Shown: in pieces, positions 41,985 to 43,248 of the stretch
How the letters are laid out: each line of letters starts with the position of its first letter
How positions within the stretch are numbered: position 1 is the first letter of the stretch
Source of the DNA: Escherichia coli
GTDB taxonomy: Bacteria; Pseudomonadota; Gammaproteobacteria; Enterobacterales; Enterobacteriaceae
Assembly: GCF_051903065.1 (NCBI RefSeq)
Contig: NZ_CP178438.1
DNA: 64,000 nucleotides
Direction: 5' to 3' (one strand)
Notes under the pieces: generated by a model
What the model was told of the DNA's origin: nothing
Databases searched by the model: none
What the model saw: the letters and a program-made list of their open reading frames with translations, nothing else
Translations under genes and position numbers: made by a program

Positions 41985-43248
41985 TTATTCCGCACAGCCG
42001 TAGCGATAGGCGCGCAAAACATCATAAATTTTATCCATAATCAGCTGATGCGGTATTGCTGATAATTCCCCGGACTGAATGCGTTCAAATTGTTTGGGAA
42101 GATACTGACTAATCATGCCCAGTGGGATGTCCACGCCTTGCAGATTCACCATCATCGTTTCAACGCTATTTTTAATCCGACTATGCGGCCAGTAATAACG
42201 AATACGATCCGACAGGCTGTAACGAATATCCAGTAATGAATCGTTAAAACCCGTGCGATAATATTTTTTTCCAGTATTGCGGTTCGTCGAGCATCACTTC
42301 TTCAATTACCGCCAGGCAACCGCTGCGATTTTCGGGGGCGATAAGTTCCTGCTCAATTTGTGCCAGTGCAAATATCGCCTCGCGTAAAGCAAAGGTTAAT
42401 GCGGGACCGACTTTCAATATTGCAAAGTGATCGCGGACTAATTCCCAATAAGCCGTCCGGGTCTGGTAATCGGTAGAATGTGCTTCATAAACCATTCGGG
42501 TGTTTTCTATCCATTGCGCCAGCGCCTGCGCTTCCTGCGGCTGATAATGGATAATATTGCTGTGATCAAATTCCACACCCGGCTGCACCACGATGGCAAT
42601 CACACGTGTTAACGCCTCTGTCAGCCCACGGGCAATAAAGGCCTTTTGATGCGTACGTAAAGTATTGGCGGCATCTTCAACATGGGTGATGTGTACTGAC
42701 TGAATGGCGCTGGCCTCACCGCCCGGAACCGGAACTTCGGTGCCAATGACATAGCTCAGTTGCTCACGCTGGCAATCTGTCACCACACTTTCCGCAGCAA
42801 AGCAAAGCACAGCAGCTCGTTCCGCAACCGTTTCTGGTGCTAACGGTATGGGATCCCCCGCGCAGGACATTGACGCATCAAGATGAATTTTACTGAAGCC
42901 AGCACGAACATATGCCTTTACCAGCTCGACGGATTTTTCCATTGCCGCATCCGCATTTTCTTGCTGCCAGCAGTTTGGCCCCAGATGGTCTCCGCCGAGA
43001 ATAATGCGCTCGCGCGCAAATCCGACTTTATCGGCAATCGTAAAAACAAATTCGCGAAAGTCTGCCGGTGTCATTCCGGTATAACCGCCAAATTGATTGA
43101 CCTGGTTTGACGTTGCTTCAATCAGCACTTTGCGCGTGCTGTTGCGATCAAATGCCAGCGCCGCTTCGATAACCAACGGATGGGCAGAACAGACTGAACA
43201 TATGCCGATATGTTCACCAGCTTTATGCCGGGCAATTAACGTTTTCAT
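41985..43248 (-). pseudogene. gatZ: gatZ (tagatose-bisphosphate aldolase non-catalytic subunit) with +1 frameshift in an A7 run
   Basis: Track ORF 42244..43248 ends ...[11 protein letters not shown]; the expected C-terminus (...[22 protein letters not shown]) is encoded in a different frame down to 41985. The shift maps to T7 on the + strand at 42254-42260. Gene length of 1264 nt is 3n+1. Confidence 0.7.

Follow-up and report, generated by a model that had tools for sequence, protein, structure and literature searches.

The window, by which we mean the whole 64,000-nucleotide stretch of Escherichia coli DNA analysed here, carries the gat (galactitol) genes on its minus strand in the same order as K-12, with gatZ between gatY and gatA and the gatYZABCD-gatR cluster adjoining fbaB and yegS. 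The genes for the class II tagatose-1,6-bisphosphate aldolase, gatY (43277..44131), for gatA (41523-41975), gatB (41208-41492), gatC (39849-41204) and gatD (38761-39801), and for the gatR repressor (37882..38661) are all intact. In K-12 MG1655 (2169693-2174278), gatR is split by IS3E and gatC is annotated as a pseudogene; many strains, laboratory and natural alike, have a damaged gat locus. Between fbaB and gatY, the window also holds a copy of IS1397 (44354..45789, plus strand), an IS3-family element whose orfA and orfB are joined by a programmed frameshift. The element splits a REP palindromic unit exactly at its centre. It lies 222 bp ahead of the gatY ATG, and both the fbaB terminator and a promoter-like gat site have it on their upstream side. 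The empty site in O169:H41 strains reads …GATGCGACGC/GGAAGCGTC…, and it is likewise empty in strain 1500 and K-12.

The gene of interest, gatZ (41985..43248, minus strand), is a pseudogene of 1264 nt, as against 1263 nt in intact alleles. Its reading frame (42244..43248, minus strand) closes after 334 codons at a TAA (42246-42244), giving GatZ residues 1-328 followed by six foreign residues, ILSHGF, with the loss of 92 native residues (329-420). The break falls at a run of seven A on the gene strand (T7 on the plus strand) at 42264..42270, corresponding to gene nt 979-985, where intact alleles have A6; the gene strand across it reads TGG AAA AAA ATA TTA TCG CAC GGG TTT TAA. The normal C-terminus, ending in RYGCAE and a stop, is obtained from the adjacent frame by translation of 42269..41985 on the minus strand, and the out-of-frame remainder (41985..42263, minus strand) still encodes residues 329-420 and carries no further lesion. 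When one A is deleted, a 420-aa open reading frame with a single terminal stop results, and this repaired protein aligns over residues 1-420 with E. coli GatZ (PDB 2FIQ; E=3.7e-285). Nowhere else in gatZ does an A/T run reach six bases, so the tract (gene nt 979-984 in its A6 form) is the expected site for a slippage indel. Codon 156 (42781..42783, minus strand) bears a lineage-specific change, GCG>GTG (A156V), which marks the gatZ allele of the window.

Comparison with the Pfam family PF08013 (GatZ_KbaZ-like) leads to the same picture. The truncated 334-aa product scores 528.9 bits over profile positions 1-329 of 420, and the out-of-frame tail scores 99.5 bits (E=2.2e-28) over positions 328-419, so that both halves exceed the gathering cut-off of 26.7 bits and belong to the GatZ/KbaZ family; no single frame in the window gatZ, however, spans the whole domain of about 420 positions as in a functional member. 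The first-pass annotation had proposed that the frame ends early, that the C-terminus lies out of frame and that one base fewer restores the full-length protein, and on these points the translation, the PF08013 matches, the 2FIQ alignment and the 420-aa repaired frame all agree with it, as do the gene boundaries, which it gave exactly. Its placement of the T7 run at 42254-42260 was ten bases away from the actual run, and its estimate of about 85 lost codons has to be revised to 92 native residues.

The A7 allele is not confined to the window. A megablast search of gatZ against 5,426 complete E. coli genomes located the gene in 5,003 of them, two of which, 23CRST027 and 23CRST031 (human faeces, Ecuador), are 100% identical to the window over gatZ, A7 included. 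A third, ECNB21-M121 (meat, China), shares A7 and has a second, -1 frameshift at gatZ nt 87. PGAP marks gatZ as 'frameshifted' in all three of these complete RefSeq genomes, and the annotated pseudogenes AC6IZ1_RS12465 in 23CRST027 and LA372_RS08320 in ECNB21-M121 have the same A7 at nt 979-985. A 67-nt probe centred on A7 was matched exactly only in these three complete genomes, and its 66-nt A6 version in 726. The exact 334-aa product was found on 94 contigs across NCBI, ENA and Logan, with carriers that include GCA_949766195.1, the drafts GCA_002468935.1 and GCA_965264685.1, and the Logan assembly of run ERR3985198. A cluster at 90% identity that contains the truncated GatZ has a 284-aa GatY as its representative and consists mostly of GatY sequences; this merging of GatY and GatZ is probably a database artefact that arose via a bridging or fused record.

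Between lineage loci with A7 and the window, 2-7 substitutions were counted across 8-13 kb, and the isolates are therefore related but distinct. The closest complete relative, 23CRST027, is set apart by 4 substitutions, with no indel, across 57,181 bases; the window thus represents a different isolate of the same clone, one without the IS903B and IS1 copies found in yehB of 23CRST027. This fimbrial usher gene is an uninterrupted 831-aa frame in the window (56790-59285) and is broken by IS903B and IS1 (IS1A) in 23CRST027, which indicates recent IS activity within the clone. A literature search on the strain names 23CRST027 and ECNB21-M121 returned nothing relevant on sequence type or phenotype. 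Two further regions of the window are recorded here for completeness. An IS110-family element lies at 781-1806 between yegH and asmA, and is called an 'RNA-guided transposase' in the annotation of a sister genome. The region from the ibs toxin genes to mdtA (15962-22604) begins with a gtrA/gtrB/gtrC-like O-antigen glucosylation module, followed by two hypothetical genes, a truncated phage tailspike (head-binding domain) and an IS481-family transposase, and it looks like the remnant of a serotype-converting prophage.

A one-base change in homopolymer length is the classic long-read error, so a sequencing or assembly error in a genome that truly has A6 and an intact gatZ deserves consideration. 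Nevertheless, projects unrelated to one another, and from different countries, yielded the same A7, as did short-contig drafts and a Logan assembly, and the 57-kb comparison with 23CRST027 shows no indel discrepancy. Members of the same lineage with A6 were moreover called as A6, so that the tract has been resolved both ways. Agreement among independent assemblies, together with the lack of any other indel difference, rules out a homopolymer error for practical purposes, and we give that explanation hardly any credence. Where error had earlier been rated as equally plausible, the balance thus shifts decisively, with A7 present in three complete genomes, in drafts and in the Logan assembly, to the other half of that annotation, namely a genuine +1 homopolymer lesion in gatZ at a locus prone to mutation, which also agrees with published gat loss.

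The history of the allele can be followed through its flanking markers. The tract is A6 in K-12, O169:H41 and strain 1500, and A7 in relatives of the window within the lineage. The nearest other gatZ allele, that of the O169:H41 strains, is 5 nt away, intact, with A6 and with no IS between fbaB and gatY, whereas every A7 locus that reaches far enough has IS1397. V156 is absent from gatZ of O169:H41, K-12 and strain 1500. The repaired (A6) form of the V156 protein was recovered from 6-8 contigs by exact look-up; A156V is common to the A7 members and these rare A6 members of the lineage, which makes it a useful allele marker. Two of the contigs, from GCA_051321145.1 and GCA_012100055.1, were compared with the window: they combine V156 with A6, match it at 99.95% over 8.4 kb and break off precisely at the junction with IS1397. 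This combination gives an order of events in which IS1397 and A156V came first and the change from A6 to A7 followed, and A7 is thus the derived state. The A7 allele is vertically inherited and widespread in the lineage. Over the same 8.4 kb, the pattern is star-like and holds no site that would polarise the two tract lengths inside the lineage. Both SNPs private to the A6 members are derived, and hence this segment does not separate a basal sister group from revertants; a single forward mutation from A6 to A7 would be the more parsimonious account.

The same tract has been altered elsewhere in the species. On the commoner allele type, with a CGT flank, A7 was not found among complete genomes, and A5 was found in six of them, spread over four different gatZ backgrounds that lie 6-21 nt from one another: one shared by 2013C-3033 (USA) and JNEC-KY171 (Japan), one in F8704-2, one in MS 198-1, and one shared by HCP8S3_I1 (UK pig) and MSB1_1D (Australian human). 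In each of these A5 alleles, the addition of one A restores the 420-aa frame. On the CGC-flank type, A5 came up in one record at >=99% identity that is not among the listed full-length matches, and this was taken for a clipped alignment and left out of the count. A 334-aa product with A156 in place of V156 occurs with A7 on two ENA metagenome scaffolds, whose gatZ backgrounds are 11-12 nt from the window and which differ from each other by 55 SNPs per 6.4 kb, although these are metagenome consensus sequences to be taken with some caution. In all, changes of one base in either direction at the A6 tract are present on at least seven backgrounds, with both states inside one clone; at the two flank types tested, such alleles turned up in only some 9 of about 4,500 complete genomes (approximately 0.2%). 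Judged by these comparisons, the A6 tract is a recurrent natural indel site, and that the same tract is hit repeatedly, and in both directions, in natural E. coli is the one mildly new point of this analysis. In MS 198-1, the chromosomal gat operon with the A5 gatZ is found on a 66.8 kb record labelled 'plasmid unnamed2' (NZ_CP146689.1), which is likely a mis-assigned chromosomal fragment.

GatZ is reportedly needed for the full activity and the stability of the GatY aldolase. It has more recently been described as a tagatose-6-P/fructose-6-P C4 epimerase, an activity shared with KbaZ and not mentioned in the first-pass annotation, with C20, E44, D87, H88, E171, H257 and K279 proposed as catalytic residues (PMC11907403). 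All seven lie before residue 328 and are kept in the 334-aa product, so that residual GatZ activity is possible. The lost segment, on the other hand, falls within the domain that defines the family and is kept in KbaZ, to which it is 42% identical as against 57% for the rest of the protein. From this conservation, and from the gat-negative phenotype of K-12 gatZ mutants, we infer loss of function for the A7 allele; the truncation of 92 residues most likely destabilises or inactivates GatZ.

We consider it probable, on the sequence evidence, that the window holds a slipped-strand loss-of-function allele of gatZ, inherited vertically in one clone that would be galactitol-negative or impaired. 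Replication slippage would have lengthened the A6 tract (nt 979-984) by one A in an ancestor of a single clonal lineage, which already had IS1397 between fbaB and gatY as well as A156V in GatZ. The resulting protein, deprived of the conserved C-terminal portion of the GatZ/KbaZ domain, would be non-functional or unstable, and GatY aldolase activity and GatZ epimerase activity would be lost or strongly reduced. Cells would then use galactitol poorly or not at all, and they may even be sensitive to it, because GatABC uptake and GatD remain intact. The allele may have persisted because a cell in the gut loses nothing, or even gains, by giving up galactitol catabolism. In K-12, gatZ disruptions are gat-negative, relieve inhibition by galactitol and confer a fitness gain of ~6.5% in the mouse gut (PMC3945185), and the gat locus is inactivated at ~1e-5 per generation (PMC5094792). 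Gat-negative clones can revert, and galactitol use is a natural polymorphism among human faecal and gut isolates (PMC5850726). A loss-of-function reading of A7 fits this published gut-evolution work, although the K-12 mutants were obtained in a gatR-null, constitutive strain, whereas gatR is intact here, and the selective argument may not transfer.

Other effects on the operon can be envisaged. From the premature gatZ stop to the gatA ATG, about 268 nt are now untranslated, and polarity on gatABCD is possible. As for IS1397, it is unlikely to act as a gat silencer, since the promoter-like region is intact and contigs of A6 members of the lineage also break at the IS1397 junction. Draft contigs break at the edge of this element.

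Could the lesion be phenotypically silent, either because the 334-aa product works, or because slippage yields full-length GatZ, or because KbaZ substitutes for it? The retention of the proposed catalytic residues speaks for the first of these routes, and the conserved position of the missing 92 residues, described above, speaks against it. For the second, a +1 slip of tRNA-Lys on A7 (AAA AAA A) would re-pair perfectly and reproduce the wild-type sequence exactly, and the zero-frame codon that follows is AUA, a rare one in E. coli; traces of full-length GatZ may therefore be made, through this shift or through RNA polymerase slippage on A7. There is, however, no evident element that would stimulate frameshifting, and some 99.8% of the complete E. 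coli genomes hit by the tract queries keep an in-frame A6; with A6 as the norm, a gene that works by programmed frameshifting or transcriptional slippage was rejected. The third route would draw on the aga/kba cluster, which is full and intact in 23CRST027, including kbaZ and kbaY, and could buffer the gatZ defect when induced. The kba genes, though, are controlled by AgaR, and galactitol is not known to induce them. Where epimerase function is concerned, kbaZ does complement a gatZ deletion (PMC11907403). The state of the remaining genes cuts both ways, for gatY, gatA, gatC and gatD are uninactivated in seven A7 genomes and gatB is hit in only one, yet two members of the lineage have acquired additional inactivating gat mutations. 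Taken together, we regard a silent lesion as improbable.

A rather different proposal is that the tract acts as a reversible, contingency-like switch, with slippage of one base in either direction toggling gatZ and A7 as a revertible 'off' state. The distribution of alleles lends this some appeal: A5 has arisen on its four backgrounds among the six complete genomes, A7 is seen both in the IS1397/V156 lineage and on the two divergent metagenome scaffolds, and A6 and A7 coexist within that lineage, so that both tract lengths in one clone and recurrence across lineages, two features of phase-variable genes, are indeed observed. A 1-bp insertion in gatC also provides an experimental precedent for frameshift reversion and for frequency-dependent gat polymorphism (PMC5850726). 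Against this, seven bases are short for a tract with high-rate phase variation, alleles one base longer or shorter are as scarce as given above, and no site in the 8.4 kb nests A6 members of the lineage among A7 members, one forward mutation being more parsimonious; second-site lesions in the gat operon, moreover, indicate decay and not maintenance. The window gatZ is thus unlikely to be phase-variable in the strict sense, the tract being short and the variants rare. That the A6 tract serves as a natural, recurrent and possibly reversible on/off site for galactitol use in gut E. coli seems to us unlikely, and we retain the slipped-strand loss-of-function reading.

The loss-of-function reading can be set beside what has happened to the rest of the operon since A7 arose. 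Across the seven A7 genomes in which the gat operon was compared, gatY, gatA, gatC and gatD are free of inactivating mutations, gatC showing one missense (T379A) and one synonymous change, and gatB has a nonsense mutation, E25*, in GCA_949766195.1. This hit and the second gatZ frameshift of ECNB21-M121 fit relaxed constraint, although the numbers are small; alternatively, with the downstream pathway broken, selection may have favoured closing down uptake. A gatC frameshift, as a second inactivating gat hit, is also seen in the A5 pair HCP8S3_I1 and MSB1_1D.

Viewed against known systems, the gatZ of the window is an ordinary slipped-strand frameshift pseudogene of a kind that is already known and already flagged by RefSeq in sister isolates: a one-base homopolymer change alone explains the disruption, and that change is reproduced across independent assemblies and passed on vertically. 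Relative to 23CRST027, the window adds another isolate of the clone, 4 substitutions away over 57 kb and with yehB intact. The gat-negative K-12 mutants recovered from the mouse gut (Barroso-Batista 2014, PMC3945185; Lourenco 2016, PMC5094792; Sousa 2017, PMC5850726) are likewise gat loss-of-function alleles, gatZ among them, in which small indels occur and the polymorphism can revert. Their gatZ hits are mostly IS insertions, together with 2-bp and 5-bp deletions, at nt 120-121, ~444-466, 585, 755 and 813, and they arose in a gatR::IS3 constitutive background, whereas the present allele is a +1 change at nt 979-985 in a natural, gatR-intact clone. The gatZ indels of Barroso-Batista were considered as possible A6-tract events, but they lie at other positions, none beyond nt 813. 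The natural A5 (-1) alleles share with A7 the homopolymer, the kind of slippage and the 'frameshifted' label, but are of opposite sign, with a 364-aa product, a different aberrant tail and unrelated backgrounds 6-21 nt apart. In the contingency loci of Haemophilus, Neisseria and Campylobacter, a one-base change in a coding homopolymer likewise switches a gene off, and does so recurrently; the gatZ tract, by comparison, is only 6-7 nt long, its variants make up ~0.2% of genomes, and nothing here points to high-rate switching or to the tract being maintained by selection.

No new mechanism is involved here, and the significance of the finding is modest. If the tract did prove to be an on/off site, it would be the wild counterpart of the cycling between gat-negative and gat-positive states in mouse colonisation experiments. 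On the slipped-strand loss-of-function reading that we prefer, the clone, known from human faeces in Ecuador, meat in China and other samples, is predicted to be galactitol (dulcitol)-negative or impaired, a phenotype that would bear on biochemical typing and on how gat polymorphism in gut E. coli is read. The recurrence of one-base changes in unrelated strains, for its part, lends support from natural populations to the laboratory finding that gat function is lost readily and repeatedly.
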